A stretch of DNA of 56,094 nt from a virus (IMGVR_UViG_3300033145_000771:1-56094); one strand, 5' to 3'. Positions 17,249-38,032 are shown, counted from the stretch's first letter. Notes: a model not told the origin generated them from the letters alone. Made by a program: numbers and translations.

Positions 17249-17250
17249 TT

Positions 17251-22265: not shown

Positions 22266-22280
22266 TATAAGCATCCGTGC

Positions 22281-22412
22281 AAAAAATATCCCCCAGAGCA
22301 TGAACGCCGAATACCACAAGGGCATGGGCCTCTGAGGGATAATTGAAGCTGATTCTATTGTAATATCCAACGTTCATAATCACAAATATACAACAAATTT
22401 CCTATATGTCAA
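22281..22412 (-). promoter_or_regulatory. Promoter + A-B-A'-B'-polyU leader (copy 1)
   Basis: TTGACA-16-TATATT; ATGAACGTT/GGCGTTCAT; TATCCCTCAGAG/CTCTGGGGGATA; T6. Confidence 0.65.
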
Positions 22413-22451
22413 GTGTTTTTTTGTTTAACTGCTTGTTAGTCTTTGTCCTGC

Positions 22452-22628
22452 TTAGTTTGCTGTTTCTTCATACTTATTGCATTGTTCGACAATATCACGT
22501 ATCAGGGGCCACCACTGGAATGCCTCTGCCGTTAATTCGACCTCATCTTTTCTTGCTGAACAAGAAAAAGTCTCAAGCTCGTTGCCCTGAAACTCAAACT
22601 TCCAGCCTAATCTCATTAGTTCTTCCAT
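22452..22628 (-). CDS. Hypothetical 58-aa protein (MEELMRLGWKFEF...)
   Basis: Manually translated; GGAG/ACGGA upstream. Confidence 0.5.
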   Translation of the reverse strand: MEELMRLGWKFEFQGNELETFSCSARKDEVELTAEAFQWWPLIRDIVEQCNKYEETAN

Positions 22629-22751
22629 TATCCGTCAATCTCCATATTTACCCTTTCGGGAAAAAAACTTCCCTTCACCCATACCCCATAACACCTAATT
22701 CGCCTTTTCTTTTCCCAGAGTGCCTGTAGTGGCCACTCTGGCGTCAGGAAA

Positions 22752-22970
22752 CTATACGTACGGTCGGTACTTGAACAGTGGGCAGGTTACAACGGTACAT
22801 CTTTTGATCTCGGCTGCCTCCCAGCACATACAATCGAGACATTTGCTATTTATCGCAGCACGTATAGAATGCCCTTTCATAGCCTTATCGTACTGCCTGC
22901 GATATGAACCGTGAAACAAATCCGGGATTTTCTCCCGAAACAACTTTCTCTGTTCTTCTGTCGCGCTCAT
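22752..22970 (-). CDS. Hypothetical Cys-rich protein
   Basis: AINSKCLDC...C....CPLF..RPY. Confidence 0.65.
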   Translation of the reverse strand: MSATEEQRKLFREKIPDLFHGSYRRQYDKAMKGHSIRAAINSKCLDCMCWEAAEIKRCTVVTCPLFKYRPYV

Positions 22971-23006
22971 GTTAATATCATTCCTTTCTATTATATAAAT
23001 TTAGCA

Positions 23007-23213
23007 TTACATCCTGAGCCATTCTGCCCGGGTTTTCAAATGTGCGAGAATCTGTTTTTCAAGATCAGGGTCAAGCCAGTCTTGCCCAATAAGCCAATCC
23101 AAATAACCAACATCGATATCGCTTGCATAATTGCCGGCGTGTTTTCCAAATGGGATTATTGGGTCTGGCGTATCACTCATTAGTTCCTCAAAGTTCATAT
23201 AAACCACCTGCAC
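23007..23213 (-). CDS. Small DUF3820-like protein
   Basis: IPFGKHAG...DIDVGYLDWL. Confidence 0.65.
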   Translation of the reverse strand: MQVVYMNFEELMSDTPDPIIPFGKHAGNYASDIDVGYLDWLIGQDWLDPDLEKQILAHLKTRAEWLRM

Positions 23214-23237
23214 TTTGCCATAATCTTTTCCTTTTGC

Positions 23238-24084
23238 TTAAACAAATTTACTGTTCTTTACAAGCGCCAAGACCGCATCCCTGGTACAACCGGCCTGAAG
23301 CCACGCCCGTATATCCTTCTTTTGAGGCGGTTTGATAATCCTAACACTGCTCACGAACAGCTTGATGGAGCGAGCCAACTTTAACCCTCCGGAATACCCT
23401 GGAAAGAACTTCCTGCCGTCAGGCGTATATTTAGCTTCATCCTTGTCGGCAAACACCACGACCTGCCGGTTAGCATGCTCAATCATTTCTTTAATATACT
23501 TGTACCCTGTACCACAACTTGCCCTGCCGATAGCTGGAAATCCCAAATCCAATAGAGCTGCAGTGTCAGTCGGGCCTTCGGCGATGAATAGCAAGTCGTC
23601 GGACTCAGCCTTTATACTGCCTGGAATGAACAGGCCATTCTTCGAGCCTGGAACGCTAAACTTTTTACCTGTCAGCGTTCGCAGCCTAATCCCGATGATA
23701 TTCCCCTTACCGTCTTTCATCGGAAAGCAGTGGACTTTCTTCTGAGGATCCCAGCCAACAAGCAGGTCGTCAAGAGCCATCGCACTGAGCCCGAACATAG
23801 CAACTGCCTTTATTATATCCACATTATTGCGATAAGAGGCAACCAGTTTGCCCCAATTCGGCACAAGCGTCGGCTTAGGATTGCGCTTCGGAACGTATTT
23901 CCGTTTCTGTTTTGGCGGTCTGTCTATCAGATTATGAAGCCAGCCTGCACCTTTATCCCCAACTATACATACAGAGCCTTCCGATACCCGTGCGCAAATA
24001 GCAGCAGAGCCATCCTCGGCGTATAGGCACCAGTCAAAACCTTCCACAAATGACACAAGGATGATTTTTATTTACCCTAAGCAT
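23238..24084 (-). CDS. Zn-finger + TOPRIM primase with a +1 frameshift at 24034-24039
   Basis: AAGGAG-ATG 24084 MLRVNKNHPCVICGRF*, continues FDWCLY in +1 frame; IAEGPTD, FADKD, KDIRAW. Confidence 0.75.
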
Positions 24085-24136
24085 TTGATAGTCTCCTTTC
24101 CGCTGACACATAAAGCATTTTAGGTCGAATCATTGT

Positions 24137-24397
24137 CTAAACTCCTTCGTTTGGGATTCCTGCCGCTGCCAAAGCTTCGTCAAGAATGTATGGCTCCGAG
24201 CCGTCCCAGAGCTTTTGGCCTTCGTCGTATTTTTTGTCCTGAAATTCTTCAAACGCATCTGGAAATTTTTCGTAATCGGGACATTCGCCTCGCCAGTCAA
24301 GGTGGGTACTATCATTGTCCACCATAAGAACCCAGCCTTCTAATTTGCCTGACTTAAATGCGTTTGCCAATTCTTGTATGTTTTTGTATTTAGCCAT
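24137..24397 (-). CDS. Hypothetical protein
   Basis: AAGGA RBS. Confidence 0.65.
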   Translation of the reverse strand: MAKYKNIQELANAFKSGKLEGWVLMVDNDSTHLDWRGECPDYEKFPDAFEEFQDKKYDEGQKLWDGSEPYILDEALAAAGIPNEGV

Positions 24398-24408
24398 TGT
24401 CTTAGTCC

Positions 24409-24591
24409 TTAAGAATTTAATGCACGTTCAATCGAATCAAAATCTTCATGCGAAGATGTTAAATATTGTAACCGCTTCAACTCAGTCTCCATAGCTTCAA
24501 GCTTTGCCCCGATACACGAATTACACAGCCCAATATTCAAGGCGTAGTTGTAATTGTCTTCGCTTCCGCACTTTTCACATTTGTTAGCCAT
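24409..24591 (-). CDS. Hypothetical Zn-binding protein
   Basis: Two C-x2-C pairs. Confidence 0.55.
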   Translation of the reverse strand: MANKCEKCGSEDNYNYALNIGLCNSCIGAKLEAMETELKRLQYLTSSHEDFDSIERALNS

Positions 24592-24601
24592 TGTCTTTAC
24601 C

Positions 24602-24883
24602 CTATGGAAAGTTGTAGGTTATTGATGTCAATATATTGCAATGCTTACAATAATGGCCAGTGACTTCACTAACTTCAATACCGTCTGCTATTTCACTGTC
24701 TAATTCAACCGTCTCACCATTTTTATACGGCTCATCGTCCACCCGCCATTCGTCGTAAGGATAAACAAGCATCGTTTTGCCCCCGCACTCATCACATAGC
24801 GAATAGCCATCCTTTTTTTGCTCACCAATTATCTGGATAGTGAACCCTCTAACTTTTGCCTTAGCCATTGTCTTTCTCCTCAA
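24602..24883 (-). CDS. Hypothetical Zn-ribbon protein
   Basis: C-x2-C pairs; AGGAG before MAKAK. Confidence 0.6.
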   Translation of the reverse strand: MRRKTMAKAKVRGFTIQIIGEQKKDGYSLCDECGGKTMLVYPYDEWRVDDEPYKNGETVELDSEIADGIEVSEVTGHYCKHCNILTSITYNFP

Positions 24884-25055
24884 TGAGTTCTTTTCTGTAA
24901 AATCCCATAATCTTATCTCTTATACGGGGATTGTCTCTGAGAACTATAATCCTGTATTCCATATTGAGATTTGTCTCCCCAATCATCTTTCCTTTTTCCC
25001 CTCTCAATCGGCCTTTGCATATTACTATGCGACGTCCATATTTGTATTTAAGCAT
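24861..25055 (-). CDS. Hypothetical protein
   Basis: RBS; overlaps neighbours. Confidence 0.55.
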   Translation of the reverse strand: MLKYKYGRRIVICKGRLRGEKGKMIGETNLNMEYRIIVLRDNPRIRDKIMGFYRKELIEEKDNG

Positions 25056-25293
25056 TGTCTTCGTCCTCGTTCAGTCGGTCAAATTCTTTTATAGCGTTTC
25101 CCGTATCCGCCAGGAATTCGTCTAACTCGGCAGCGCACATATCGGGATGGGCTGTGATGAAGCCGAGAGTCTCCTTAACGGTTCCAACTATTAAATCGAT
25201 ACGCGAGATATCGCCCCTTCGAGAAGCGTGCGACATTCTCACGGTTAATTTGTAAATATCAATCTTATCTTTGTCTGTCAGCATATTTACCAC
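25048..25293 (-). CDS. Hypothetical protein
   Basis: Packed in operon. Confidence 0.55.
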   Translation of the reverse strand: MVNMLTDKDKIDIYKLTVRMSHASRRGDISRIDLIVGTVKETLGFITAHPDMCAAELDEFLADTGNAIKEFDRLNEDEDNA

Positions 25294-25450
25294 ACAATAC
25301 CTTTGCTTTGCCTTTGCTGTGCGATGCTTCGCCGGGCCAAGCTTTGCCTTTGCTTTGCCGTGCCTCGCGCTGCCTTTGCACTCGGCTTCGTCTTTGGGTA
25401 TATAATTATCTTCTTTCTTAGAAAAATGTAAGCAAGGCCATGTTAGTTTA

Positions 25451-26380
25451 TTAGAATCGATAGACGATATTTATACCAAGACAGTCGGCGTCGTTGGCAA
25501 ACTCCGCTTCAAGGCCCATCATCAAGGCTTTGCTCAAATGAAATTGCATACCTACGATGACGCCTACATCTTCTATGCTGAGTCTTGAATCTTCACGCAT
25601 GGATACAGTTCGTGTTTCAGAAGTACAAAGACCGTAACCATCTTCAGTTCTATCGTCGGTTATAGTATTTGAAACATCAACCCACGCTGTATAGTCTCCT
25701 CGCATAACATTGTAGCAAGGCCCGCCATAAACAACACACTGATTCGTCAGCCGATAAGTCGGTCCGACCAGGAATTTCAATTCATCGTATCTCATGTCCC
25801 ATTCCGCACAGTACACATTCAAAGGTGGTTCTGCATCTAAATCGAAATCAGCTTGCCATTGAGCTCCTATCCATCGGGCCGATGCACCTATGGTGAGTTT
25901 ATCTTTTTGGTAGAGATTCATTCTCAAACCGAATCCTCCCGCATATCCGGTGTCATGTTTCAAGTCACCGCTGGGATCGAGTTCTGAACCGCCGAGATAA
26001 ATATCTACACTCAAATCTTTAGTTACACCAATTCCCATTCGGCCAAGATATGAAGTAGTATTGAAACCTTTAGACTTGAATTTGAACTTCGTAGTTTCAG
26101 TTGGCAAAGTTGTAATTTCAGTCGTTGTTTCTTCGGAGTCGGGAACATAAAGACCATATTTAGTCATACCGCCTTGATATGTCATAGTTTCTGTAAATTC
26201 AACTTGACCGCTTAATGTTAATTTCCCAGTCGTATCAAAATCGTCAAGCTTGAATTCTGAAAAACCAAAACCATACTCAAACTGGCCTTGCTTCAAATCT
26301 GCCATAGGCGGACCCATGACTGCTATTGCTGTTGAACTGAATAATGCTACCAACATTATTGTTGTCATTAACCATTTCAT
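25451..26380 (-). CDS. Putative outer-membrane beta-barrel protein
   Basis: Signal peptide; amphipathic strands; terminal GINIVYRF. Confidence 0.7.
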   Translation of the reverse strand: MKWLMTTIMLVALFSSTAIAVMGPPMADLKQGQFEYGFGFSEFKLDDFDTTGKLTLSGQVEFTETMTYQGGMTKYGLYVPDSEETTTEITTLPTETTKFKFKSKGFNTTSYLGRMGIGVTKDLSVDIYLGGSELDPSGDLKHDTGYAGGFGLRMNLYQKDKLTIGASARWIGAQWQADFDLDAEPPLNVYCAEWDMRYDELKFLVGPTYRLTNQCVVYGGPCYNVMRGDYTAWVDVSNTITDDRTEDGYGLCTSETRTVSMREDSRLSIEDVGVIVGMQFHLSKALMMGLEAEFANDADCLGINIVYRF

Positions 26381-26535
26381 TTTTTTTCCTTAAATTTAAT
26401 TTCGGTTATTGTTTCGTACGTCAACATCTAACATGTTCTACAAGGCGAACGACACCTTTTTGTCTTCATTCTATTTTACCTCCTTTACGGGCTTTCATGC
26501 GCCGCATAGCATCAAACAATTAAGCTGTGCCATTT

Positions 26536-28221
26536 TTATTTTGCTCCCGGCTGCAGATTCTTAGGCAGTCGCCATCTTTGCCAGCCACATTTTGCCAACG
26601 CGCCTATTCTCTTGCTGGCATCCGCGAAAGACATTTCGGTAGTGTCAAATCCGGCCTTCTGGAGGCACTTGGCCTGCTTATAAGTACACGTACCCCCTTC
26701 ACGCCGCTTAATCATAACGTCAATGATCTGCGAGGCGTGAGAAAACGACAGGCCATCGGTAGGGACGCCGCTTTTTTCAAGATACGCAAGCTGTCTTTGA
26801 GACGGCGGCTTGCCTTTGTGCCAGGGTGCTTCTCTTACAGGGTCGATATCGAGTACGTTGAAGGGATTGATTTTCGCAGTCGAATACTTTGCCCTGAGCA
26901 GTAGGTGATCTCGGGCAATAGCATCTTCCCTGTCCCTGTGCCTTTTTGCTATCTCCCGCTCGGCCTTCTGCAGCTCAGTAGCGACATCGACAGGCATTTT
27001 GTTTTCGTCCGATTTCTTGGCGGCGTTTTCATTCGCAAGCTCCACGACTTCATCGGAATAATTACCACCGAGGATATCGGCCGGACATATCAGTTTATGC
27101 CTACCAGCGTTGCCCACAAAGTCCAAAATTGTCGCAAAGGGCTTTGCACTATTCATTATAGCCTCTCTGCGTGCCTCCACGGAATCATATTGGTCGATAT
27201 CTATTTCTGTTAGTACGCGGCCAGCCCTGCCCACCATCTGCGTGTAGAGACTTCTACTCTTCGTTGGCCTGGCGAGAACAACGGCCATGATCGAGGGATC
27301 ATCGTAACCCTCAGTAAAGCAAGAAACATTAACAAGATACTGGAATTTATTCCTGGCGTAATCCGTAACGATAATTCGTCGCAACTCTTTTGGTGTGGCG
27401 CCACAAACGAATCGTGCGGAGTCTCTTTTGTGTCGATTGATAATCTCTGTCAGTCTTTCAGCTTGGGCCACGGACGCTGCGAATACCAATGTCTTTTTGT
27501 CGTCGGTCAACTGCACGGTCGGGTCCGCTATGCCGTGCAGATTTTCCTCGAATTCGAGCACCGCAGCCAGATCCTTGCCGTTCAAGTCACCGGCGGTCGT
27601 CTTGACATTCGAGTAATCCAGCCCTTCTACGAAAACGCTCTGCTGCTCGAACGGGGTAAGCCAGCCATCACTGATACCATCTTTGATGTCATACTCATAA
27701 GCCACTTCTTCAAATATCTGGCCCATCGCCTTCTTATCGTGTCTGTCAGGCGTCGCTGTCAAGCCGAGAACTTTCAGCTTGGGATTTTGTTTGTAATAGT
27801 CAATGACCTTTTTCCATGAAGTCGAGACTCCGTGATGCGCTTCGTCTGCTATCAAAAGTGAAAATTCATTCGGATCGAACCTGGTCATGCGCCCGCCGTT
27901 CCTGCCTGCGATTTGCGTCTGAACAGTGGACACTACGATATCGGATTTGAAAGAATCGAACGCCGTTGCCCACTGGCTCCCCATCTCGATATCACCGACA
28001 CAGCCGGTAACTCTTTCGATTTTATCCTGCGCCTGTGTTATCAATTCTTCTCGATGGGCAATCACCATAATCCGACCGGATTCCTGAAAATGCTTTACGA
28101 GGTGGGCCGCTATAATAGTTTTTCCCAACGAAGTTGCAAGGACACACAAAGCGGTATCGTTCTTTTCAAAAGCCTTGAGTACACAGTCGTATGCTTCCTT
28201 TTGATAAGAACGCATAATCAT
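26536..28221 (-). CDS. SF2 DEAH-box helicase
   Basis: RSYQ, LGKT, DEAHH, GLTATP, TEGYDDP, QMVGRAGR. Confidence 0.95.
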   Translation of the reverse strand: MIMRSYQKEAYDCVLKAFEKNDTALCVLATSLGKTIIAAHLVKHFQESGRIMVIAHREELITQAQDKIERVTGCVGDIEMGSQWATAFDSFKSDIVVSTVQTQIAGRNGGRMTRFDPNEFSLLIADEAHHGVSTSWKKVIDYYKQNPKLKVLGLTATPDRHDKKAMGQIFEEVAYEYDIKDGISDGWLTPFEQQSVFVEGLDYSNVKTTAGDLNGKDLAAVLEFEENLHGIADPTVQLTDDKKTLVFAASVAQAERLTEIINRHKRDSARFVCGATPKELRRIIVTDYARNKFQYLVNVSCFTEGYDDPSIMAVVLARPTKSRSLYTQMVGRAGRVLTEIDIDQYDSVEARREAIMNSAKPFATILDFVGNAGRHKLICPADILGGNYSDEVVELANENAAKKSDENKMPVDVATELQKAEREIAKRHRDREDAIARDHLLLRAKYSTAKINPFNVLDIDPVREAPWHKGKPPSQRQLAYLEKSGVPTDGLSFSHASQIIDVMIKRREGGTCTYKQAKCLQKAGFDTTEMSFADASKRIGALAKCGWQRWRLPKNLQPGAK

Positions 28222-28433
28222 TTGTCATTCTCCTTTAGGGCTTGTCTACCTTTTGCAGTTATCGTAAAATACTCATCGGGAGCCCATGTCCCTTTTTTGC
28301 CCTCTGATATCATCAATCCCTGAGATACAAGAGCTTGCATATCGGCAGAATCGCCACAGTAATAGTTACTTGCCGCTCTGTATAATGTGTGGCTAAGTAT
28401 CTCTCGTTGACTTTTTGATATTGCCATTGTCAT
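28218..28433 (-). CDS. Hypothetical protein
   Basis: AAGGAG RBS. Confidence 0.65.
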   Translation of the reverse strand: MTMAISKSQREILSHTLYRAASNYYCGDSADMQALVSQGLMISEGKKGTWAPDEYFTITAKGRQALKENDK

Positions 28434-28761
28434 TCTCCTTGATAGAAGGATCTATCTTTGAGGTTGCTATCCAAGTTGCAGAATAGGTAGGAACCATTTC
28501 ACCAGACACTTCATACTCTTCGATACCATCTTTTGTCTGTACACGTACTGTCGTAGTTTCCCCTTTCAGTAAATCGTAATCTCCGGCGTCAATCCTCTCA
28601 GCCCTAAGTCTTGCCGCTTCTTCCACCGTATGAGCATATACTTCCGTCCATTCGTCCTCTTCAAAAGTAGGTACATTAGTTTTCCATAACGGCGGACACT
28701 TATGATCGCCGCGAGAAAACATAAAGCCTTTACATTTTGGACACCAATTACCCATTGTCAT
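28393..28761 (-). CDS. Hypothetical protein
   Basis: AAGGAG RBS; C-x2-C...H-x-C. Confidence 0.65.
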   Translation of the reverse strand: MTMGNWCPKCKGFMFSRGDHKCPPLWKTNVPTFEEDEWTEVYAHTVEEAARLRAERIDAGDYDLLKGETTTVRVQTKDGIEEYEVSGEMVPTYSATWIATSKIDPSIKENDNGNIKKSTRDT

Positions 28762-28942
28762 TCTCCTTGCGTTGCATTTCTACGAGTTCCTGTTGTTCTC
28801 GTCGGCGTTCTTCTTCTCGTTGGTGTTCTTGTCGTTCATATTCTTCTGGGTTTGCATCGTAAGCGGCTTGTTTTTCTCGTATTCCCCTGATTACTCCGGG
28901 CGTCATAATGCAATTGAGATATTCAGGTCTACTCATCGTCAT
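28748..28942 (-). CDS. Hypothetical protein
   Basis: AAGGAG RBS. Confidence 0.6.
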   Translation of the reverse strand: MTMSRPEYLNCIMTPGVIRGIREKQAAYDANPEEYERQEHQREEERRREQQELVEMQRKENDNG

Positions 28943-28948
28943 TCTCCT

Positions 28949-29266
28949 TTAGGACTTAGGATATTCTCCTTTTAGTAAATCTCTGCCTATTTGTTCGTGG
29001 TCGTCCAACAGTAGAAGTAATTTGCTATTCGCTTCGTCCCAATTTTCTACTGGAATGTATGTTTCAAATATTTCATTATACGCATCTTTCATCTTGGCGT
29101 TCTCGTCTTCGAGGTCATTATATTCCAGTTGTAGTTCACAGAGTTCGGCAACAGCCTCATTATATTTCTTTTTGAGGTCCTCGTTCTCGGGGTAAACCTT
29201 CATAAAACTGTCCAAGTTTCTCTGGCTTAGTTTTTCTGCTTTTGTTGAGTCTTTAGCCATTGTCAT
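28949..29266 (-). CDS. Hypothetical coiled-coil protein
   Basis: AGGAG RBS. Confidence 0.65.
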   Translation of the reverse strand: MTMAKDSTKAEKLSQRNLDSFMKVYPENEDLKKKYNEAVAELCELQLEYNDLEDENAKMKDAYNEIFETYIPVENWDEANSKLLLLLDDHEQIGRDLLKGEYPKS

Positions 29267-29324
29267 TCTCCTATCAAAAAGCGGCGGCCGCCATCCCTGG
29301 CTTGAGAAGGCAATCTGGCGTAGG

Positions 29325-29870: not shown

Positions 29871-30781
29871 TTGAACTCCTTTGGAGTAGCCTTGAAAGTG
29901 ATCTCATTGACCCATCCGCACCCGTCACAGGCCCGGCATTCTGCGTTATTCTCATCAGCTTGGCAATAGCCACAGACAGCAAAAGGCATAGCGAACTTGA
30001 ATATCCTCTTGACGTTCCCGATCTGTGCTGTCAGGTTCTCGATCTTGATGTACCTATAGAACAGGTCACCCTTTTCCTTTCCCTCCCGAACAGTCCTGAG
30101 CTGGTCGTTGAGCTGCTTAATCATCGCCCTGTATTCGTTGGCCCGCTCGAAATACTTGATAAGGTGTTTGGGCACCTGTTTGCCTGTCGCATCGAGGACT
30201 TTTTTCTCCGGAACGGTAACTTCGCATTCGCCATCGCCTCGCCTGACTGTTCGGGTTTTTGCCCGAGAAAGTTGATTATTGGGCTTAGAATCAGGTTTGA
30301 GGTATGAACTGTTCATACCTCGATTTTCTCCGGAAGTATCCTGTTTTTTTAAGTCAGCCTGAATCTTGAATACATACCTCTCGGTACATCCGACATGGTC
30401 TGCAATCCCCCTCGCCGACATTGTCGCCCATTCCTCATCCTTCAAAATCTTCTCGATAATGCCCTTGGCTGTACCGGGCTGGCGTGGGAAGGCGTTCGTC
30501 TTGTTCGCCGCGAACGAAAAGAATATGGCGTCTCGCCGAGTGCCTTTTTCGACGGTGGCCGAGATGTACTTCTTTCCGAGCTTCAAGTGGGCGAAATAAC
30601 GATGATAACCGTCCCATAAGTATTTGTTATTGCCATCGGTTATGATGGATACAGATGGAAATTCAAAGCCCTCCTTTATCAGAGCCTTGTAGCGCTTCAT
30701 TGTATCGTCGTCAACTGGACGTTGCTGAGTTCCACCGTCAATTACTATGTCTTTTAAAGGAACTTCTTTTGTTGCTGCCAT
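29867..30781 (-). CDS. ParB/Srx-like domain protein with HTH and C-terminal Zn finger
   Basis: LWDGYHR, SARGIADHVGCT, C-x2-C pairs. Confidence 0.75.
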   Translation of the reverse strand: MAATKEVPLKDIVIDGGTQQRPVDDDTMKRYKALIKEGFEFPSVSIITDGNNKYLWDGYHRYFAHLKLGKKYISATVEKGTRRDAIFFSFAANKTNAFPRQPGTAKGIIEKILKDEEWATMSARGIADHVGCTERYVFKIQADLKKQDTSGENRGMNSSYLKPDSKPNNQLSRAKTRTVRRGDGECEVTVPEKKVLDATGKQVPKHLIKYFERANEYRAMIKQLNDQLRTVREGKEKGDLFYRYIKIENLTAQIGNVKRIFKFAMPFAVCGYCQADENNAECRACDGCGWVNEITFKATPKEFK

Positions 30782-30801
30782 CAGTGAATCCTTTCAGGTA
30801 G

Positions 30802-30894
30802 AAAAAAACCGATGCAGGGCTGAGAAGCACTATAGGGGGTTCTACAGAACGACCCTGCATCGGCTTTGTTTAGTATTGGTTTCGTGCTTCTCAT
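30802..30894 (-). promoter_or_regulatory. A-B-A'-B'-polyU leader (copy 2)
   Basis: TGAGAAGCAC/GTGCTTCTCA; CCGATGCAGGG/CCCTGCATCGG; T7. Confidence 0.65.
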
Positions 30895-30999
30895 GGCATT
30901 CTCTACTTCCATTATCGGCTACCTGTACCAGATAAGTCCAGTAAAATCCGGCCACAGGAATATTCCTTCACGCCTGCAGCCGGCCCGTCCGTCCGTGGC

Positions 31000-32319
31000 C
31001 TACTTTCCGTCCTTGAAAAGCTCGCCATCCTTGTCTGGAGCTACTACGCTGCCGTCTTCTATAATGAACCCCGTCTTTCCTTCCCCGGTTATCCTCTCGA
31101 TCCAAACCTGATAATCCTTTTCCTCGGCCATCTTGCAAACAGCTTCGAGATTGGCTTCGTCCAAGTCGTTTCCCTTCATCAAGATCACTTTCAGCTTGGG
31201 ATTCAGTGCCATTGAGATAGCCACAGCGATTTGAAGCTGCATTGATTCGTTCACCTGAGCAAGAGGTATGCCTTCAAAGAGGATGGTATCTTCCCCGACA
31301 GACAGGCCCTCGATAGGCATCTTCACCGCGGCCAATCTTTCCGCCTTCTTCGCTTCCAGGGTCTTTATCTCTTTGCCGAGAGTAGCGAATTCCTTGCTTT
31401 TGCCAGCCGATTTACTGACCAATTCCTTCTCGTGAACCTTCCGCCGAACATTATCGTTAATGGCTTCCGCATTTTGGATTTCCCCGTTGATCGATCCTAA
31501 ATCTATTAGCGGCTCCAGTGTTTCAGCCAATTTCACTTGGTCGGCTTGAGCCTTGATAAGCGCATCCTGTCCCTGCTTCTGCACTCTCTCCGCCTTCGCC
31601 AACTTTAGTCTCAAGTCTGCTATGAGCTGGAGGTTGTCGCTCAGGCTTTCTTTGAGGCGTTCGATTTCATCTTCCCCTGCGTCTATCGCCCGGGCAGTCT
31701 CGCCTTGTTTTTCGTTATGCCGTGTGGCTTCCGTCAGCTTCTCTGTCAACGCTGTCATTGACACCAGTTCCTCTGGCGTATCTTCCGGGACTTCAATCTT
31801 GCCGGCCTCGTAGTCGTAGGTTTCCTTCTCGGTCTTAACTGTGGAACGCTGCTGTTTGACTTTCGCTATATCTGCATTGATATCGTCGAAGTCCAGACCG
31901 ACCAGCTTCATCAGCGCGTGGAGCTGCTCACGCTGCTTCTTTACGTCCTTGCAGTCTTTGAAGAACGCCATCGGTTCGAAAGCGATTTCCCCGACCAGCT
32001 TATCGAGCAGGCCCTGCGGGGAAGACGCCTTCATGCCTTCGGCGTTCGATATCGTTACCGACCCACCGCCCTTGGCAGTGAAAGTGCGTTTGATGATGAA
32101 ATTATCAGTTTCAACAACAATCTCCGCTGATTTTTCTCCATCACGGATGGGCTTAGCCGGTGTACACTTCTTGCCACAAAAAGCGCTCATTACGGCATCT
32201 AACACGGAACTCTTCCCCGCTCCATTCTTCCCAGTTATGAGAATCGCATTCCCTTTGGGACTTATCTCGACAGCCCGCAATTTCATAAAGTTTTCTACAG
32301 TCAGCTTTATAATCTTCAT
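31000..32319 (-). CDS. SMC/RecN-like ATPase
   Basis: VENFM, GKNGAGKSS Walker A, long coiled coil. Confidence 0.85.
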   Translation of the reverse strand: MKIIKLTVENFMKLRAVEISPKGNAILITGKNGAGKSSVLDAVMSAFCGKKCTPAKPIRDGEKSAEIVVETDNFIIKRTFTAKGGGSVTISNAEGMKASSPQGLLDKLVGEIAFEPMAFFKDCKDVKKQREQLHALMKLVGLDFDDINADIAKVKQQRSTVKTEKETYDYEAGKIEVPEDTPEELVSMTALTEKLTEATRHNEKQGETARAIDAGEDEIERLKESLSDNLQLIADLRLKLAKAERVQKQGQDALIKAQADQVKLAETLEPLIDLGSINGEIQNAEAINDNVRRKVHEKELVSKSAGKSKEFATLGKEIKTLEAKKAERLAAVKMPIEGLSVGEDTILFEGIPLAQVNESMQLQIAVAISMALNPKLKVILMKGNDLDEANLEAVCKMAEEKDYQVWIERITGEGKTGFIIEDGSVVAPDKDGELFKDGK

Positions 32320-32341
32320 TTTCAATCCTTTCAGTTTGGGT

Positions 32342-32809
32342 TTAAGTTCTAAGTCTTGCGAAGACTTTGTTATCTTGGTCTCTTGCATTGGATACGTCAG
32401 AATAAAGCACTTTGCATTCCTTCCCGGTCAAGTCATCGGTGAACCAGAATTTATTGAAGTTCGGCAGGCTCGGTAAACAGTGAAGATGGGTGAAAGTATA
32501 GGGTAGAAACTTATGACCCTTTCTCCACACTCCGAGCCAACTATCGTGACTGTCCTGGTAATCTCTTACTATTTCCAAGTCCACGTACTCCGGATCCGGC
32601 TCCGGTTCCGGTTGGTAGTCGGGATTGATGCTGTAGACTAATTGTGGGGAATCAAACATCCAAGATCCCGATTTCCATTTTCCTGGACCACGGTATACCA
32701 CAACAGCCTTTTTCTTATTTACCTGCCTGAGACATTCCTGTTCTTCCAGCGACAATAAGCCGAAGGGCTTTTCGTTCTTTTTGAGTTTTTCAATCATTTC
32801 GTTATTCAT
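32342..32809 (-). CDS. Hypothetical protein
   Basis: AAGGAG RBS. Confidence 0.65.
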   Translation of the reverse strand: MNNEMIEKLKKNEKPFGLLSLEEQECLRQVNKKKAVVVYRGPGKWKSGSWMFDSPQLVYSINPDYQPEPEPDPEYVDLEIVRDYQDSHDSWLGVWRKGHKFLPYTFTHLHCLPSLPNFNKFWFTDDLTGKECKVLYSDVSNARDQDNKVFARLRT

Positions 32810-33042
32810 GGTTTCTCCTTACGAAGAATAAGATTAAGGGCTTCTTGGACAGTTTTGATGGACTCTGCTTCTTCATCTGTTATGCTAATATCAAACACGT
32901 CCTCACATTCCATAACCAATTCGACACAGTCAAGCGAATCCATAGTAAAATCTTCAGCGAGATTCTTATCAAGTGTGACTTCATGTATATCAATGCCAAA
33001 TTGCTCTGAGATAATAATTTTAAGGCGTTCTATCTCTTTCAT
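32806..33042 (-). CDS. acpP: Acyl carrier protein
   Basis: 78 aa, acidic; MDSLDCVELVMECEDVFDISITDEEAESIKTV. Confidence 0.9.
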   Translation of the reverse strand: MKEIERLKIIISEQFGIDIHEVTLDKNLAEDFTMDSLDCVELVMECEDVFDISITDEEAESIKTVQEALNLILRKEKP

Positions 33043-33069
33043 AGTTTCTCCTTTATTTGGGTTTACTTG

Positions 33070-33678
33070 TTATCCGAATAATCTTAACTGTCCCTTATTT
33101 GTCGCGTTCTTGCCTAAATTGCATCTCAGATGCGTTGCCTGCACATTTACTGGTGAATCGTTGCCGCCTCTACTGAGCGGAACGATATGGTCAATGCTCC
33201 CTGAGCGGGGATTCGGGTATTTCAGTCTTTTGTTTATCTTCCGTCCGCAAAGCTGGCAAATCCAACCATCACGTTCAAAAACATAATTGGTTGCATAGGG
33301 CTTATGTTTAACTCCACACCTGAAGGCTTTCCGTTTTCTGTCATGAAGCTTGCTTTGTTCTAAATGGGCTTTGCGATATTCCCTTGCACGTTTCTTACAT
33401 TTTTCGGCGTGTTTTTTATAAAAAGCTTTTCTGCGTATTTTTATCTTTTCGCTATTGGCTAACTGGTTTGCTTTAGCGGCTGCTTTCATCTTTTCTGAAT
33501 TAGCTTTGTAATAAGCTTTGCGAATAATCTTAAGGTGGACTGAATTCGCCAAATTATAAGCTTTATCGTATGCTTTCTGGCAAGATTTGCAGAAACTATT
33601 TAGGCCGTCCTTTTTAGTCTTGTTTTTGTGAAATTCCGACAATGGTTTGATTTCTTGACATTTCGAGCAAGTTTTCAT
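33070..33678 (-). CDS. HNH endonuclease with N-terminal Zn finger
   Basis: KTCSKC..KPLSEFH, ERDGWICQLC, SIDHIVPLSRGG, HLRCN. Confidence 0.9.
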   Translation of the reverse strand: MKTCSKCQEIKPLSEFHKNKTKKDGLNSFCKSCQKAYDKAYNLANSVHLKIIRKAYYKANSEKMKAAAKANQLANSEKIKIRRKAFYKKHAEKCKKRAREYRKAHLEQSKLHDRKRKAFRCGVKHKPYATNYVFERDGWICQLCGRKINKRLKYPNPRSGSIDHIVPLSRGGNDSPVNVQATHLRCNLGKNATNKGQLRLFG

Positions 33679-33682
33679 GTTA

Positions 33683-33817
33683 TCTCCAATAAAAAAGCCA
33701 ATCAGGTTGATACCAGCGCGGACAAAGTGCGTCCTCGAACTGACCTGATTGACTTTAGTATTCTTATTAACGCTGGTATCATACATATAAGATAAATCTT
33801 TTATTGGAGATCGTCAA
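33683..33817 (-). promoter_or_regulatory. Promoter + A-B-A'-B'-polyU leader (copy 3)
   Basis: TTGACG-17-TATCTT; TGATACCAGCG/CGCTGGTATCA; AAAGTCAATCAGGT/ACCTGATTGGCTTT. Confidence 0.65.
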
Positions 33818-34945
33818 CTATTTTTTTCCGAAATGTCCATCTAATTCTAAATCTTGCGAGGGTTTCAGCTTAGAGACACCTATATCTTGAAATTCGGTTG
33901 TAAAGCGTTCGGTAGGTTTTTTTTTGGTAAATACAACTTTACTACCTTCAATCGCTCCCCTACTCTTTACCCAGGCCGTGGCGGCCGCCTTCTGCCTTTT
34001 GAGCCACTCGGTAACTACCACAAGCCTGTCAACGTACGCTTTTGGATCGTCAGCTATTTCTTTCGCATCCATATCGGCCATCGGACAGAATCTAATCATA
34101 TCGCACCATGCGCAGCTCTGCGGCAAGGGCCACGGGTCTTTACAGTTCTTCATAAACAAGTCCACCGCGGACATTACTCTGCCTTGAATCGCTACCTCTG
34201 TTGTAAGCCCCGGCAATCGAGGGTGCTCCTCGGTTCTAACGAATTTCGCGTAGGCTTTAGTACCCCAAAGAGTTTCAAAGTACCAGAAGTGAACCGTATT
34301 GATTTCTTGGTACGGCTCCTGCCGGAACAGTAGCCATGAACCAAATTCCGCCTGAAAAGATTCAGCGGCTTCGGAGTTCGTCAGACGCTTAAAACCGGTC
34401 TTCCAATCCATCACATGAAGGTTGCCCTTCCCCGAACCGAGAAGGTCATATCTCATTGTTACTATGACCGCCGGTGTGGTTTCTGTTTCGGGAATAACGA
34501 CAAGCGAAACCTGATGCTCGACAGCAATCAAGTTGACGTGATATTCGCTTATTAGATCAGCTGCATGTCTGGCATGACGGATTGCCATCGGTTGTATGTT
34601 CGGCTTGATCTTGGGCAGGTTGTCTACGAACCATTCCGGAATGAGATGGAGATCATTCCGGCATTCTTCAAAAGCCCTTTTGAACAGATCGTGGATCTCT
34701 ACGCCACACTCGCTTAGACAGCCGTCTGTCGATTGCAAAGCAACGGCCTTCATCCGGTCTATTAACTCCGGGTCAGCTCCTTTGACACGTTCAACTTCCC
34801 ACGAAAACTGCTCCAGACCATTTGCTTTTGCCTTAATAGCATCCCATAACAATGTTAAATACGCCTGTCGGGGGCAAGTCGCGTATTGCTGTAGACGGGA
34901 TCGGTCCAATACGATTGGCTTTAACTTTAACTTATTTTCGTCCAT
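33818..34945 (-). CDS. PD-(D/E)XK exonuclease (RecB/Cas4-like)
   Basis: YATCPR, YDLL...MDWKTG, C-x2-C-x5-C. Confidence 0.75.
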   Translation of the reverse strand: MDENKLKLKPIVLDRSRLQQYATCPRQAYLTLLWDAIKAKANGLEQFSWEVERVKGADPELIDRMKAVALQSTDGCLSECGVEIHDLFKRAFEECRNDLHLIPEWFVDNLPKIKPNIQPMAIRHARHAADLISEYHVNLIAVEHQVSLVVIPETETTPAVIVTMRYDLLGSGKGNLHVMDWKTGFKRLTNSEAAESFQAEFGSWLLFRQEPYQEINTVHFWYFETLWGTKAYAKFVRTEEHPRLPGLTTEVAIQGRVMSAVDLFMKNCKDPWPLPQSCAWCDMIRFCPMADMDAKEIADDPKAYVDRLVVVTEWLKRQKAAATAWVKSRGAIEGSKVVFTKKKPTERFTTEFQDIGVSKLKPSQDLELDGHFGKK

Positions 34946-34949
34946 GTTA

Positions 34950-35525
34950 TTATCCTATCAACCTTAATTGCCCACCAGCACCAGCACTTTTGAGTTGATT
35001 ACATCTTAGATGTGAGGTTTGTAAATTATGTGGTGCATCCGCTCCGCCTTTTGAAATCGGAATAATGTGGTCGATTGATTTCGATAAGGGATTAGGGTGC
35101 TTCAATCTTTTGTTTACCTTTCGACCGCAAATACAGCATATCCAGCCATCACGTTCAAAAATATAATTGTCTGTGTACGGCTCGTGCTTACTGTTTCGTT
35201 TCAATGCTCGGCGTTTTCTACTATAGAATCTATACTTCTCAAGATTTTTTCGGTGATACTCCCTCTGCTGTTTAATCAGTTTTTTTGCATTAGCCAGATA
35301 TTTCGCTCTATCATATTCTGCTATTTCTTTTCTGTGAGTCAGATTATACACTTTGTGTCGGTCTGCTATTTCTTTCCTGTGAGCTAAATAATAAGCTCTG
35401 TCATATTCAGTTCTTTCTTTTTTGTGAGCCAAGCGATAAGCCTTGCTACGTGCGTTGTGCTCCTTTTTGTGCACAAGATAACGAGCTTTATCGTTTGCCT
35501 TTCTTTCTTCTTTGCTTAGAGCCAT
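34950..35525 (-). CDS. HNH endonuclease (paralogue of 33070-33678)
   Basis: 15-aa basic repeats; ERDGWICCIC, SIDHIIPISKGG, HLRCN. Confidence 0.9.
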   Translation of the reverse strand: MALSKEERKANDKARYLVHKKEHNARSKAYRLAHKKERTEYDRAYYLAHRKEIADRHKVYNLTHRKEIAEYDRAKYLANAKKLIKQQREYHRKNLEKYRFYSRKRRALKRNSKHEPYTDNYIFERDGWICCICGRKVNKRLKHPNPLSKSIDHIIPISKGGADAPHNLQTSHLRCNQLKSAGAGGQLRLIG

Positions 35526-36532
35526 TATGAAATCTCCACACCAGAGGTCTCGATATAAGCCTTAATCTGTTTTAGCTGCTCGTCGTTAAGCTTGTCCGGG
35601 CCAACTTCGTCCTCATCGACACAGAGGACAAAAGCTACAAACGCAACGAAGTCTTCGCCGCCCTTCTCAACATACAGTGCGTTGACCTCTATATATAAGT
35701 CCTTCACGTCTACGGGTTTTTCTTCCTTGGCAGGTTCGGCAGTGGATTCATCGTCTGGCACTATTCTTTTTACTCGACTATTCGGCAAATAAACTTCCGG
35801 TTCCGTCTCGACTTCCCGTATAGGCGCCGCCCCACCACATGGCCCATCGAGGCTTAGCGGGACGCCTTCCGTTTCTTCAACAGGCTTCCTCGTCGTATCG
35901 ACAGCCGAACTCGGCACAGCCAAACGCCGCTCGTCTCTGGGAGGTACATCGGACTCGGGGGCCGGTAATGGCTCTTCGCCAACCATTTCTTCTGTTATGT
36001 GCATCCCGAACAGAACATCGGGAAAGTTGTCACGCAAGTTGAATGCTCTTGCCTTGTATTTCAGCATGCGCTTCGGGTGGGTACACCACGGCCCCTTTTT
36101 TCCCCATAGACCCGCTGTCTTGGCGTCGGCTACAGAGAAGATGGAAACGACCTTATTGGAAAGCTCACCGTCCTTCCTAACACTCTCTACAAAGGCTACC
36201 ATTGAATCGCCTTCGCCAGTTACTTTCTCCGAGAAGGAATGCAACAGACCGCTCCTCTTTACCAACGCCAGAGCAGCATCGCCATACATCGTAGGCTTGC
36301 CGTGAATGACAGCGAAGGAATTAAGCGATTGCATAGGCGATAAATTTATCTCTGCACCTGTTTGAATTGCTATAAGAACTTGTTCTGAGGTTTGATAGCT
36401 ATCTGGCGCAAGACCAGATTTAATTACATATTGACCAAAACGATACATATCTTCCAAAGAGTTTAACTGCAATCCCCGATTGCCTATTGTTATCTGCTGT
36501 TTAACAATCTGTTTGTTTTCATCTTTTTCCAT
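35525..36532 (-). CDS. RecT-like single-strand annealing protein
   Basis: SGLAP, GAEINLSPMQ, GKPTMYG, AGLWGKKGPW..HPKRML. Confidence 0.8.
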   Translation of the reverse strand: MEKDENKQIVKQQITIGNRGLQLNSLEDMYRFGQYVIKSGLAPDSYQTSEQVLIAIQTGAEINLSPMQSLNSFAVIHGKPTMYGDAALALVKRSGLLHSFSEKVTGEGDSMVAFVESVRKDGELSNKVVSIFSVADAKTAGLWGKKGPWCTHPKRMLKYKARAFNLRDNFPDVLFGMHITEEMVGEEPLPAPESDVPPRDERRLAVPSSAVDTTRKPVEETEGVPLSLDGPCGGAAPIREVETEPEVYLPNSRVKRIVPDDESTAEPAKEEKPVDVKDLYIEVNALYVEKGGEDFVAFVAFVLCVDEDEVGPDKLNDEQLKQIKAYIETSGVEIS

Positions 36533-36547
36533 AATCTTTACCTTCTT

Positions 36548-36994
36548 TCAAATTTTATGATATATCTTCTTCGCTTCCAAGTAAGCATTGTGAGCTTCTT
36601 CGGCAGTCTGAAAATCTCCCAGATGTATGGACTTGCCGTTTAATCTTATCTGTGCTTGATATTTCTTTTTTCTTTTATGCCAATGATAACCTCTGGGATT
36701 CGTTTTATTCCATTGATTCTGACTATGGGTTACGATTCGTAGATTCGACCTGCAATTATTAAGGGTTATGTGATTTTCGTGGTCTGCTTGACGCTTATCG
36801 CCTCTTTTGAGTCCAAGGATTTCACGTGCCATATAAATCTTATGCTCCTTGCCATTTATTAGACCGTTATATCGCCTCGCATAGTAGCTTTTCGTATTTT
36901 TCCATTCGGCAAACCATTTCCATTGATTCAGCCATTCGTAATCTTCGTCATCGACTATTGCATATTGGCCTTGTGTAAGTGGTATTTGTTTCAT
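36548..36994 (-). CDS. HNH + AP2 endonuclease
   Basis: IPLTQGQYAIVDDED, DHENH.TLNN.RSNLR, YQAQI..HLG.F..AEEA. Confidence 0.9.
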   Translation of the reverse strand: MKQIPLTQGQYAIVDDEDYEWLNQWKWFAEWKNTKSYYARRYNGLINGKEHKIYMAREILGLKRGDKRQADHENHITLNNCRSNLRIVTHSQNQWNKTNPRGYHWHKRKKKYQAQIRLNGKSIHLGDFQTAEEAHNAYLEAKKIYHKI

Positions 36995-37006
36995 TTTATC
37001 TCTAAT

Positions 37007-37133
37007 AAAAAAAGCCAGCCGAAGTTGTTACGCAGAATGGGATTGCTCCCGATTTGCCTTCGGCTGGTTGTATTTGAATCTTTTGTTCTGCGTAACATGC
37101 CGTAATAATATGTCTTCTATCGGCTTAGTGCAA
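37007..37133 (-). promoter_or_regulatory. Promoter + A-B-A'-B'-polyU leader (copy 4)
   Basis: TTGCAC-17-TATTAT; TGTTACGCAGAA/TTCTGCGTAACA; CCAGCCGAAG/CTTCGGCTGG; T-run. Confidence 0.65.
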
Positions 37134-37453
37134 CACAATTCTTTAGAGATTTTTGAAGTTTTTTCTAAGATGTGTATTGCGTGGAGGTTATGGCAATTAT
37201 TTTTTTCAATTACCTTTGCTCGTACTTCTCATACCGTATAGCATACAAAAGAAAGAGACGGCCAGCCGAACTGAATACCGCCTCTACCACCTTTGTTACA
37301 GAAGGGTTTACTTTCTATGCCTATTCCTGAATTCTTCCACTTTACGAATAGGCCATGCTATACCTTTTAGTAAAAAGATAATCCGATCCCACACATAGTT
37401 AACTATCTTTTCACCTTTAGTATAGTCAGGTTGTTTTCCAGGCCCAATCATGT

Positions 37454-37999: not shown

Positions 38000-38032
38000 C
38001 TTCTTATTTTCCTTTCTTGTATTTTCTGTAAG

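Follow-up and report, generated by a model that had tools for sequence, protein, structure and literature searches.

Four promoter-proximal leaders with crossing helices in an uncultured phage: candidate attenuators that may be read out through the 5' end of their own RNA

The genome of an uncultured phage (IMGVR_UViG_3300033145_000771; the window, analysed over its whole length of 56,094 nucleotides) raises the question of what is done by four leaders that differ in most of their sequence and yet share one order of complementary segments. Leaders L1 to L4 are each ~95 nt long, lie on the minus strand in early operons and, read along that strand, comprise an ATG, strand A, an A-rich spacer, strand B, a middle part, A', a gap, B', a T-run and the gene start (Table 1). 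Strand A is 10-20 nt, the spacer 16-20 nt, B 10-12 nt and the middle part 10-23 nt long; 0-2 nt separate A' from B', the T-run has 6-7 residues, and the gene starts 15-26 nt beyond it. This is the order of the original prediction, except that the small hairpin expected in the middle part is formed in L2, L3 and L4 and is almost lacking in L1. The sequences were also described as unrelated, but this holds only in part: nhmmer links L2 to L4 as distant homologues through a relative, L097 (E values 1e-5 and 4e-3), and an ATG and a CA are invariant throughout.

A topology scanner set to perfect helices (G-U pairs permitted), a 0-2 nt gap and 5 consecutive T finds four sites on the minus strand of the genome and none on the plus strand, and the four lie at the heads of four gene blocks. 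With at least 8 pairs per helix, dinucleotide shuffles yield 0.43 to 0.5 sites per genome against the 4 found; with at least 10 pairs per helix the genome keeps its 4 sites, where 0.01 are expected (300 shuffles).

Table 1. Coordinates of the leaders, their strands and the neighbouring features in the window.
Feature	Coordinates	Strand	Remarks
L1 leader, ATG to T-run end	22281..22377	-	97 nt
L1 promoter-like hexamer pair	22385..22412	-	11/12 matches, spacer 16; -10-like ends 7 nt before ATG
L1 strand A	22358..22377	-	starts with ATG; partner A' 22300-22319
L1 strand B	22330..22341	-	partner B' 22287-22298
L1 strand A'	22300..22319	-	
L1 B' and T-run	22281..22298	-	3' half of putative terminator
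Gene after L1	21873..22265	-	130 aa, weak replication-initiation PHROG match
L2 leader, ATG to T-run end	30802..30894	-	93 nt
L2 promoter-like hexamers	30911..30940	-	9/12 matches; -10-like ends 16 nt before ATG
L2 strand A	30884..30893	-	partner A' 30821-30830
L2 strand B	30852..30863	-	partner B' 30809-30820
L2 small apical hairpin	30839..30850	-	
L2 A', B' and T-run	30802..30830	-	
L2 ATG-started frame	30781..30894	-	37 codons; stop overlaps ParB-like gene start
ParB-like gene after L2	29867..30781	-	
L3 leader, ATG to T-run end	33691..33782	-	
L3 promoter-like hexamers	33789..33817	-	9/12 matches, spacer 17; -10-like ends 6 nt before ATG
L3 strand A	33770..33781	-	partner A' 33708-33719
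L3 strand B	33743..33753	-	partner B' 33697-33707
L3 small apical hairpin	33720..33734	-	
L3 A', B' and T-run	33691..33719	-	
HNH endonuclease gene after L3	33070..33678	-	
L4 leader, ATG to T-run end	37007..37098	-	92 nt
L4 promoter-like hexamers	37105..37133	-	weak -35, good -10, spacer 17; -10-like ends 6 nt before ATG
L4 strand A	37086..37097	-	partner A' 37026-37037
L4 strand B	37058..37067	-	partner B' 37015-37024
L4 apical hairpin	37039..37050	-	GNRA-type tetraloop; covaries with L244 orthologue
L4 A', B' and T-run	37007..37037	-	
L4 ATG-started frame	36991..37098	-	35 codons; stop overlaps HNH gene start
HNH/AP2 endonuclease gene after L4	36548..36994	-	

Five further members occur in four other uncultured viral or MAG contigs (L036, L097, L110 and two in L276). 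A relaxed scanner with an ATG filter gave 33 matches versus 30 in reversed controls and was too noisy, so only strongly paired members were accepted; L110:10571-10669 is a weaker candidate and minus-strand 12347-12437 of L276 an ambiguous site, and neither is counted. Nothing new was found by a seven-leader profile over ~2 Mb of loci or by an exact-pattern scan of viral contigs for L2-type leaders, and a scan for a T-run with a ribosome-binding site, covering 119 loci and 1.07 Mb, gave 3 scanner matches, none convincing. A search for near-identical DNA in the phage collection, with 21800-38000 as query, had no match, and tblastn of the ParB-like protein and RecT against the same collection found distant relatives only. 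Used singly, the ParB-like protein and the helicase detected no relatives among viral contigs; scans with a ParB alignment gave relatives of ≤48% identity in viral contigs and ≤34% in prokaryote genomes, with a leader in 0 of the 17 loci scanned.

A' and B' are 0-2 nt apart in 9/9 members, all of which have the invariant ATG at the 5' end and the invariant CA that closes A'. Beyond this AUG...CA there is no conservation across members, and no conserved unpaired positions were found in the leaders. The spacer sequence is not conserved between homologues, and a spacer motif common to the members is not significant (145/200 shuffles do as well). What is kept is the pairing: the covariation proposed as a check is present in homologues, where two-sided changes retain both crossing helices. 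In a set of six related sequences, from which the structure was itself derived, 86% of cells of the whole structure pair, compared with 71% in shuffles (0/500 reach 86%) and 30-48% with the partners slid. Helix A has 12 pairs in these six homologues, 6 with two-sided changes and 5 invariant, and 94% of its cells are paired. Two-sided changes are seen in 4/10 pairs of helix A and 3/9 of helix B in the L2 group, and in 3/4 pairs of the apical hairpin in the L4 group. These substitutions argue that both crossing helices are real and under selection.

Helix B:B' comprises 10-13 pairs and is followed by 5-7 U in 8/9 members and by 4 U in L110; its G+C-rich stem directly before the U-run resembles that of an intrinsic terminator, as had been suggested. 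A consensus terminator scan, which by the tool's definition takes loops of 3-8 nt, did not report these stems; the 30-36 nt between B and B' contain an upper stem and an asymmetric internal loop. Without A, the 3' two-thirds of the leader are predicted to fold as one long terminator hairpin, built from B:B' at its base, a 3'-side stretch of 4-8 unpaired nt (in the terminator-domain fold of 9/9 members), the upper stem and an apical loop. A' consists of this unpaired stretch and the 3' strand of the upper stem, and is complementary to the AUG-containing 5' end. For a prefix of the RNA that ends before B' emerges, the minimum-energy fold contains the complete A:A' helix in 7/7 members tested, with energies of -22 to -29 kcal/mol versus -9 to -12 kcal/mol when the first 15 nt are blocked (computed for 5 of the 7). 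A:A' and B:B' share no bases, and A:A' competes only with the short upper stem. The helices cross as predicted, and their strand order is identical to that of H-type pseudoknots (5' strand 1, 5' strand 2, 3' strand 1, 3' strand 2). Of the pseudoknot and the competing folds offered as outcomes, a classical H-type pseudoknot would be impossible, because a link of 0-2 nt from A' to B' could not span a stem of 10-13 bp; in L1, moreover, both full helices are unable to coexist. For L2-L4, steric considerations would still allow a pseudoknot with coaxial stacking, and A:A' might then not hinder termination.

Three of the leaders were thought to follow sigma70-like promoters, and we find a sigma70-like hexamer pair upstream of all four; the promoter tool flagged L1, L2 and L3, and the L4 hexamers, which fall below its threshold, were read by eye. 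The distance from the -10-like hexamer to the ATG, also read by eye, is 6-7 nt in 7/9 members, so that their transcripts should begin at the AUG, a start predicted from promoter geometry alone. L2 and L036 are the exceptions: their best -10-like hexamer lies 16-17 nt before the ATG, and the AUG there would not be 5'-terminal. In all nine members the U and G of the AUG pair with the last CA of A', and these pairs (U2:A and G3:C) are invariant while neighbouring pairs vary. The original prediction drew attention neither to this invariance nor to the place of the ATG at the predicted transcript start. We also note a fifth promoter, with a hairpin of a different fold and a T-run within ~70 nt, which heads the terminase operon (12185-12262), and an 8-mer that is found within or next to three of these promoters and again in relatives (6 occurrences versus 2.5 expected; 4/100 shuffles reach 6).

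The ATG is the putative leader start codon in 9/9 members, and its frame is without a stop before B' in 9/9 and through B' in 8/9, that of L3 stopping inside B'. The frame has 26-58 codons in eight members and >100 codons in L110; the L1 frame, of 58 codons, enters the gene out of frame, and those of L244, L097 and L036 stop 5-16 nt before the main start. The open frame is weak evidence, because alternative frames and the frame of the main gene are often open too: 7/14 alternative frames of the seven tabulated leaders are likewise without unforced stops, and the main gene's own frame is open through the leader in L1, L3 and L244. Over unpaired stretches of RNA the predicted peptides are not conserved; they have no residue class that is shared or repeated, and no run of codons for a regulating amino acid.

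The genes behind the leaders are much as first described, ParB-like for L2 and HNH for L3 and L4, with only the weak replication-initiation match for L1, whose gene start is confirmed by an L040 homologue. The proposed link to DNA-acting genes lacks specificity: members in relatives stand before a tRNA gene (L110) and, in one case, a Tad6-like anti-defence gene, and two further HNH genes in the window are without such a leader. As L110 is without a downstream ORF, coupling to such an ORF cannot be general.

The position of the leaders between promoter and gene fits attenuation, and self-pairing of the leader probably determines whether the polymerase stops or continues into the genes. Each would be the 5' leader of an early transcription unit, with terminator stem and U-run just before the ribosome-binding site of the gene. 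Because A' is made before B', a free 5' end would capture A' first; the A:A' helix would open the upper stem, bring a 10-13 bp helix to within 0-2 nt of B', and make it slower or sterically harder for B:B' to close behind the polymerase, which would read through into the gene. Were the 5' end occupied, the compact hairpin would form and the transcript would end at the U-run. The input would be ribosome occupancy of the AUG, the ribosome being proposed because only an initiating ribosome could recognise nine different A strands via a 5'-terminal AUG. On balance we lean towards the leaders being attenuators whose terminator is set by A:A'. The polarity, with a free 5' end giving read-through, is a marginal choice over its opposite, and the ribosome is a tentative candidate for the input that may well prove wrong. 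Promoter-proximal attenuators read out via the RNA's own 5' end, taken as the whole explanation, have an even chance of being right. It seems rather unlikely, if worth stating, that these are the first natural ligand-free 'self-invading terminators', in which the start codon at the transcript's 5' end pairs with the inner loop of the terminator that follows it and occupancy of this leaderless AUG by the ribosome alone gates transcription, used by a clade of uncultured phages whatever the sequence; were this true, the early genes include those for replication, ParB, homing endonucleases, tRNA and anti-Thoeris.

Comparison with Rfam, which might have revealed a known family, matches none to any member: the whole window gave 0 matches at the gathering thresholds of release 15, 22100-37300 gave 3 weak matches at E up to 10, none on a leader, and L036, L097, L110 and L244 gave tRNA only at E up to 1. 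A full-text literature search of main articles found no description of this architecture, and the design is apparently undescribed. Several known systems resemble it in part. Lambda PR'-tR' with Q, N with nut sites and the HK022 put RNA depend on conserved sites in DNA or RNA and on RNA folds or dedicated factors; there too a phage promoter gives a short terminated transcript and expression needs read-through, whereas here only AUG...CA is conserved and such a factor was not found among the ORFs scanned. In Bacillus subtilis pyrG a 5' poly-G made by reiterative transcription pairs with the 5' strand of the stem and prevents termination. The 5' end of the nascent RNA likewise pairs with the terminator region in the leaders, but its bases are templated and pair with the loop side beside the 3' strand.

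Leader-peptide attenuators likewise have a promoter-proximal AUG frame and then an intrinsic terminator before the regulated gene, and in Deinococcus deserti leader peptides are predicted to start at the first base of the transcript (PMC4007540), as is predicted here for the AUG of 7/9 members. Unlike them, the leaders are without a regulatory-codon cluster or a conserved peptide, the start codon is one strand of the regulatory helix, and the frame runs through the terminator. Where such attenuators form overlapping hairpins 1:2, 2:3 and 3:4, here there are two crossing helices, 1:3 and 2:4, and A:A' has none of the terminator-stem bases that a trp-type antiterminator shares. In 'tug-of-war' antitermination, a structure that adjoins an intrinsic terminator without sharing its bases suppresses termination independently of sequence (bioRxiv 10.64898/2026.06.17.733018). 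A:A' could similarly act sterically from a few nt away; that structure, however, is a ligand-stabilised aptamer upstream of the whole hairpin, whereas this helix is internal to the hairpin, adjoins the 3' strand from the loop side and uses the transcript's 5' end, and the leaders have no conserved unpaired positions or ligand pocket. At T7 Tphi, abortive transcripts of promoter phi10 cause antitermination (PMC2952870), so that there too the first bases of a phage transcription unit complement and modulate its own terminator RNA. The T7 case involves T7 RNA polymerase and a terminator far downstream, and it is released abortive RNAs that pair, in trans, with the stem's 5' half; in the leaders pairing would be in cis, on the inner 3' side and ~65 nt from the start.

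If the attenuator reading holds, the leaders would be a new architecture in bacterial and phage transcription attenuation, a switch defined by topology rather than sequence, with no ligand pocket and no overlapping antiterminator, in which the start codon of the mRNA itself acts as sensor strand. Non-overlapping antiterminators have recently been engineered, and this switch would be their natural equivalent, as well as a compact part that synthetic biology could reprogram. It would also show how a group of uncultured phages meters its early genes, among them those for anti-defence and for selfish endonucleases. For the design of decisive mutants, the nine members and their compensatory changes provide enough material.

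A rival reading of opposite polarity is that a ribosome on the 5' AUG trails the polymerase, covers B and melts the terminator, so that only transcripts of the cognate promoter that are translated at once read through, and untranslated RNA terminates with its AUG locked by A:A'. The ATG frame that passes B' in 8/9 members, its stop overlapping or close to the main start in L2, L4, L244, L097 and L036, the A-rich, unpaired spacer after A and the fact that a 5'-terminal AUG is translatable only on transcripts starting there (leaderless mRNA) would suit such a bypass. We think it improbable: initiation and translation of ~10 codons would have to fit into the time that the polymerase needs for ~60 nt, the frames of L3 and L1 and the absence of an ORF after L110 do not suit it, open frames are common in these leaders in any frame, and A:A' with its 0-2 nt distance from B' is given no clear role. 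The ribosome may also play no part, the terminators being leaky, or strong and overridden by a phage antitermination factor, as promoter-proximal terminators are by lambda Q or N or HK022 put RNA, with A:A' and B:B' jointly making up a compact 5' structure that serves mainly to protect the mRNA end. From the hairpin at the fifth promoter, promoter-proximal termination looks like a general habit of this phage, and the recurrent 8-mer also favours this reading. We nevertheless regard it as unlikely too, since the spacers share no motif as a protein site, nothing in it explains why the AUG is invariant and the 0-2 nt junction fixed, and Q, N and other antiterminator families were not found in 35 window ORFs searched against Pfam, or in 4 of these and 6 further ORFs searched against PHROGs, a set that omits many small ORFs.

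That the leaders are free-standing, trans-acting small RNAs of ~95 nt, with the genes expressed by incidental read-through, is very unlikely. Promoter and terminator do bound a short transcript, and the single-stranded spacer and U-run end are as in many base-pairing sRNAs; against this, the spacer varies between homologues, complementarity to the phage's other minus-strand transcripts is at chance level (one 12-mer match, for L1, about as expected), and the downstream genes are without another promoter, two of the upstream operons ending in terminator-like hairpins of their own. Least probable is a feature of the DNA, such as the boundary or homing site of an HNH cassette or a recombination site. 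L3, L4 and L244 directly precede HNH genes, L097 precedes a 209-aa gene without a Pfam match that is HNH-like only by a guess from its N-terminal sequence, these four share a stretch between T-run and start codon, and L3 heads a ~1.45 kb block absent from L036. Yet L1, L2, L036, L110 and the second L276 member precede non-HNH genes, and HNH homologues in relatives are without such a leader. The arrangement is crossing, not a plain inverted repeat, and the tolerance of G-U pairs and the constant use of the coding strand point to RNA.

The four minus-strand leaders of the window belong to a real leader-RNA family under selection, which looks undescribed so far. Reading all four sites bears out the original prediction, in which two crossing helices (A:A' and B:B') and a final U-run precede the gene. 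From its ATG each site continues into strand A, then a spacer rich in A and strand B; after a short middle part comes A', separated by 0-2 nt from B', and 6-7 T lead on to a ribosome-binding site and the gene start. A topology scanner applied to both strands of the window picks out the four minus-strand sites and nothing else on either strand. With at least 8 pairs per helix, dinucleotide-preserving shuffles yield 0.43-0.5 places per genome; with at least 10 pairs per helix the window keeps its four places versus 0.01 in shuffles, and the leaders are thus not a product of chance.

The record in its entirety is a 56-kb phage genome with siphovirus-type structural genes, among them a portal, an intein-bearing large terminase and a tail-tip protein J-like gene; the reference phage collection contains no close relative. 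Between about 38 kb and 18 kb every gene is on the minus strand, with functions in recombination, replication and selfish endonucleases, and leaders L1 to L4 stand at the heads of four successive blocks of these genes (table). Three sigma70-like promoters had been counted at the leaders; hexamer pairs are now seen upstream of all four, by promoter scan for L1, L2 and L3 and by eye for L4.

Coordinates of the leaders and of other features in the window and in related contigs
Feature	Source	Coordinates	Strand	Setting
L1	Window	22281-22377	minus	Heads initiator-like gene and following genes
L2	Window	30802-30894	minus	Heads ParB-like gene and genes down to helicase and primase
L3	Window	33691-33782	minus	Heads HNH, acyl-carrier-like gene, gene of unknown function, AAA ATPase
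L4	Window	37007-37098	minus	Heads HNH/AP2, RecT, second HNH, PD-(D/E)XK nuclease
Member	L036	14322-14419		Before ParB orthologue, 69% identical
Member	L097	6032-6128		Between helicase and 209-aa gene
Member	L110	2911-2995		Contig binned with Ignavibacteria MAG; ~75 nt before tRNA gene
First member	L276	2916-3011		Same place in L244; L4 orthologue, before HNH gene
Second member	L276	5444-5538		Sequence unrelated to other members; before Tad6-like gene
Tad6-like gene	L276	5555-6142		Directly behind second L276 leader
tRNA gene	L110	3072-3147		Unusual anticodon AUU
Weaker look-alikes		L110 10571-10669 and L276 12347-12437 (minus)
Different ~130-nt leader	Relatives	L021 ~2230-2380, L022 ~420-560, L023 ~200-330, L033 ~1180-1310, L035 ~4290-4420, L036 ~8800-8950		Ahead of small ORFs and RecT
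HNH genes, early region	Window	29325-29870, 33070-33678, 34950-35525, 36548-36994	minus
Acyl carrier gene	Window	32806-33042	minus	78 aa, within L3 block
Large terminase gene	Window	8381-11572	minus	1063 aa
Nucleotidyltransferase and recombinase module	Window	15230-16000 and 17233-17979	plus
Second upstream ATG	Window, L3	33786	minus	238 codons
Second upstream ATG	L276, L4 orthologue	2911		186 codons
Fifth promoter-like site	Window	12185-12262	minus	Heads DUF5681 gene and terminase operon
Shared 8-mer	Window	12255-12262, 30912-30919, 37117-37124	minus	In or beside three promoters

Five further members were found on other uncultured viral or MAG contigs (L036, L097, L110 and L276, which carries two), in searches that reached 94 loci through RecT homologues and further loci through the ParB-like protein, patterns and handles. 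No leader of this class precedes the more distant ParB relatives (at most 46% identity) or HNH homologues. A strict scan of other viral DNA, about 2 Mb in all, gave nothing convincing, and a relaxed one gave 33 matches versus 30 in a reversed-sequence control, so the class is rare and lineage-bound as far as searched. Two weaker look-alikes were not counted: helix A of one contains three G-U pairs, and an apical hairpin is missing from the other. The relatives also carry a different leader, some 130 nt of conserved, structured sequence that closes with a weak terminator-like hairpin and often has a tRNA gene before it; it occupies the position that L4 holds in the window, matches no Rfam family and does not occur in the window. 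We also note that the gene behind the second L276 leader matches the type I Thoeris inhibitor family (Pfam E 1e-43), and that in L110 a long hairpin and T-run lie between the leader and the tRNA gene.

In homologues both helices keep pairing through two-sided changes, although these are a small set of related homologues and also the ones that served to derive the structure. Pairs were counted on MAFFT alignments in which both L276 members were included only in part. Among six homologues, helix A has 12 pairs, of which 6 are changed on both sides and 5 are invariant, with 94% of cells paired. Over the whole structure 86% of cells pair; column shuffles give 71%, with none of 500 as high as the real alignment, and sliding the partners gives 30-48%. 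Helix B scores lower (76% of cells) because the pairing registers of the two subgroups are offset by one column. Within the L2 subgroup, two-sided changes are seen in 4 of 10 helix A pairs (100% of cells paired) and in 3 of 9 helix B pairs, with two further one-sided changes (93%). The helices of the L4 subgroup are almost invariant, and here the two-sided changes fall in three of the four apical-hairpin pairs. Between L2 and L036 alone, the 21 pairs include five with two-sided changes and one with a one-sided change, and none is broken.

The two helices are of similar stability. Nested folding chooses B:B' in L2 to L4 and a 20-bp A:A' in L1, and when the other helix is blocked A:A' reaches -16 to -24 kcal/mol and B:B' -18.5 to -28 kcal/mol. 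From B onward all nine members fold into the same architecture: a basal B:B' stem stands beside the U-run, immediately above it 4-8 nt are left unpaired, exclusively on the 3' strand, and a short upper stem with its apical loop completes the hairpin. A' is made up of this unpaired stretch and the 3' strand of the upper stem, and the 5' AUG region is therefore complementary to the inner 3' side of the terminator. When a prefix is folded in which A' has emerged and B' has not, A:A' is complete in all seven members tested (-22 to -29 kcal/mol); in the five of them that were also folded with a block on the first 15 nt, the energy falls no lower than -9 to -12 kcal/mol. On geometric reasoning rather than computation, the 0-2 nt between A' and B' leave no room for a classical H-type pseudoknot, and a coaxial "nicked rod" is conceivable for L2 to L4, not for L1.

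An ATG opens all nine members, and in each its U and G are base-paired to the CA that ends A'; adjacent pairs covary freely, with four different pair types at position 3 of helix A. Seven of the nine (L1, L3, L4, L097, L110 and both in L276, by eye) have a -10-like hexamer whose end lies 6-7 nt upstream of the ATG, a spacing from which the transcript of most members should start at the A of AUG; this predicted start would give a leaderless start codon. In L2 and L036 the hexamer ends farther away, at 16-17 nt. The ATG frame is free of stops up to B' in all nine members and through B' in eight, the stop in L3 lying inside B', and in L2 and L4 the stop overlaps the main start codon. The open frame is weak evidence: it arises at about 0.2 per leader in sequence shuffles, 7 of 14 other frames across seven tabulated leaders likewise lack unforced stops, unpaired parts of the RNA show no conservation of the peptide, and there is no common spacer motif among the leaders. 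Both L3 and the L276 orthologue of L4 have a second ATG 4-5 nt upstream of the leader ATG, which shares the reading frame of the HNH gene across the whole leader and may be either chance or the start of an alternative long protein form. We note that 12 bases of the L1 spacer (22342-22353) are complementary to a stretch at about 22016 within the downstream gene, at about chance level over the four leaders.

Promoter-like sites, two covariation-supported helices and a terminator-like 3' end, together with the order of strand synthesis and the lower energy of the A:A' fold while B' is still to be made, suggest that the leaders are most likely a new form of attenuator. A free 5' end would capture A' first and open the upper stem; the resulting helix of 10-13 bp would lie only 0-2 nt away from B' and hinder closure of B:B' behind the polymerase. 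Terminator-adjacent structures without shared bases are reported to suppress termination through RNA exit channel competition (bioRxiv 10.64898/2026.06.17.733018). If the 5' end were occupied, the compact hairpin would form and transcription would stop. As the nine A strands differ and the AUG alone is constant, an initiating ribosome would be the most economical candidate occupant. The main rival has the opposite polarity, in which a coupled ribosome melts B and so gives read-through, and this matches the open frame and the stop-start overlaps.

Another rival is a factor-dependent antitermination system, for which no factor family was found among a subset of the window ORFs, 35 compared with Pfam and 10 with PHROGs (4 ORFs in both). 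For the leaders as trans-acting small RNAs, no targets were found above chance. They could also be DNA-level cassette boundaries of HNH genes, as HNH-family genes follow three members (L3, L4 and L244), the unassigned 209-aa gene after the L097 member was taken as HNH-like by eye only, and these four share a stretch before the start codon; however, five members precede non-HNH genes and HNH homologues elsewhere lack a leader.

Comparison with Rfam, proposed along with the prediction, gives no family matching any member. The nearest known kinds are lambda Q and N, the HK022 put RNA, pyrG, leader-peptide attenuators, including predicted ones with a peptide from the transcript's first base (PMC4007540), tug-of-war antitermination (bioRxiv 10.64898/2026.06.17.733018) and T7 abortive-transcript antitermination (PMC2952870). 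The leaders depart from each of these in a defining feature. Full-text literature searches gave no description of this design, and one may exist elsewhere.

Among the various other features of the genome, we note that an AP2-like domain is fused in two of the four early-region HNH genes and that a leader precedes only two of the four. The acyl carrier gene encodes a phosphopantetheine-attachment domain, and the L3-headed block in which it lies is missing from L036. Intein splicing and LAGLIDADG-like domains indicate that the large terminase holds one or two inteins. The sole plus-strand module encodes an RlaP-like nucleotidyltransferase and a serine recombinase, which may point to a temperate phage. 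The fifth promoter-like site, also strong, has two hairpins and a T-run within about 70 nt downstream, in a fold unlike that of the four leaders. It suggests that the late operon, too, undergoes promoter-proximal termination, which thus seems to be habitual in this phage. One 8-mer is found in or beside three promoters, and similar letters lie upstream of the L036 and L110 leaders. It occurs six times in the window versus 2.5 expected (4 of 100 shuffles reach six) and may be an operator.
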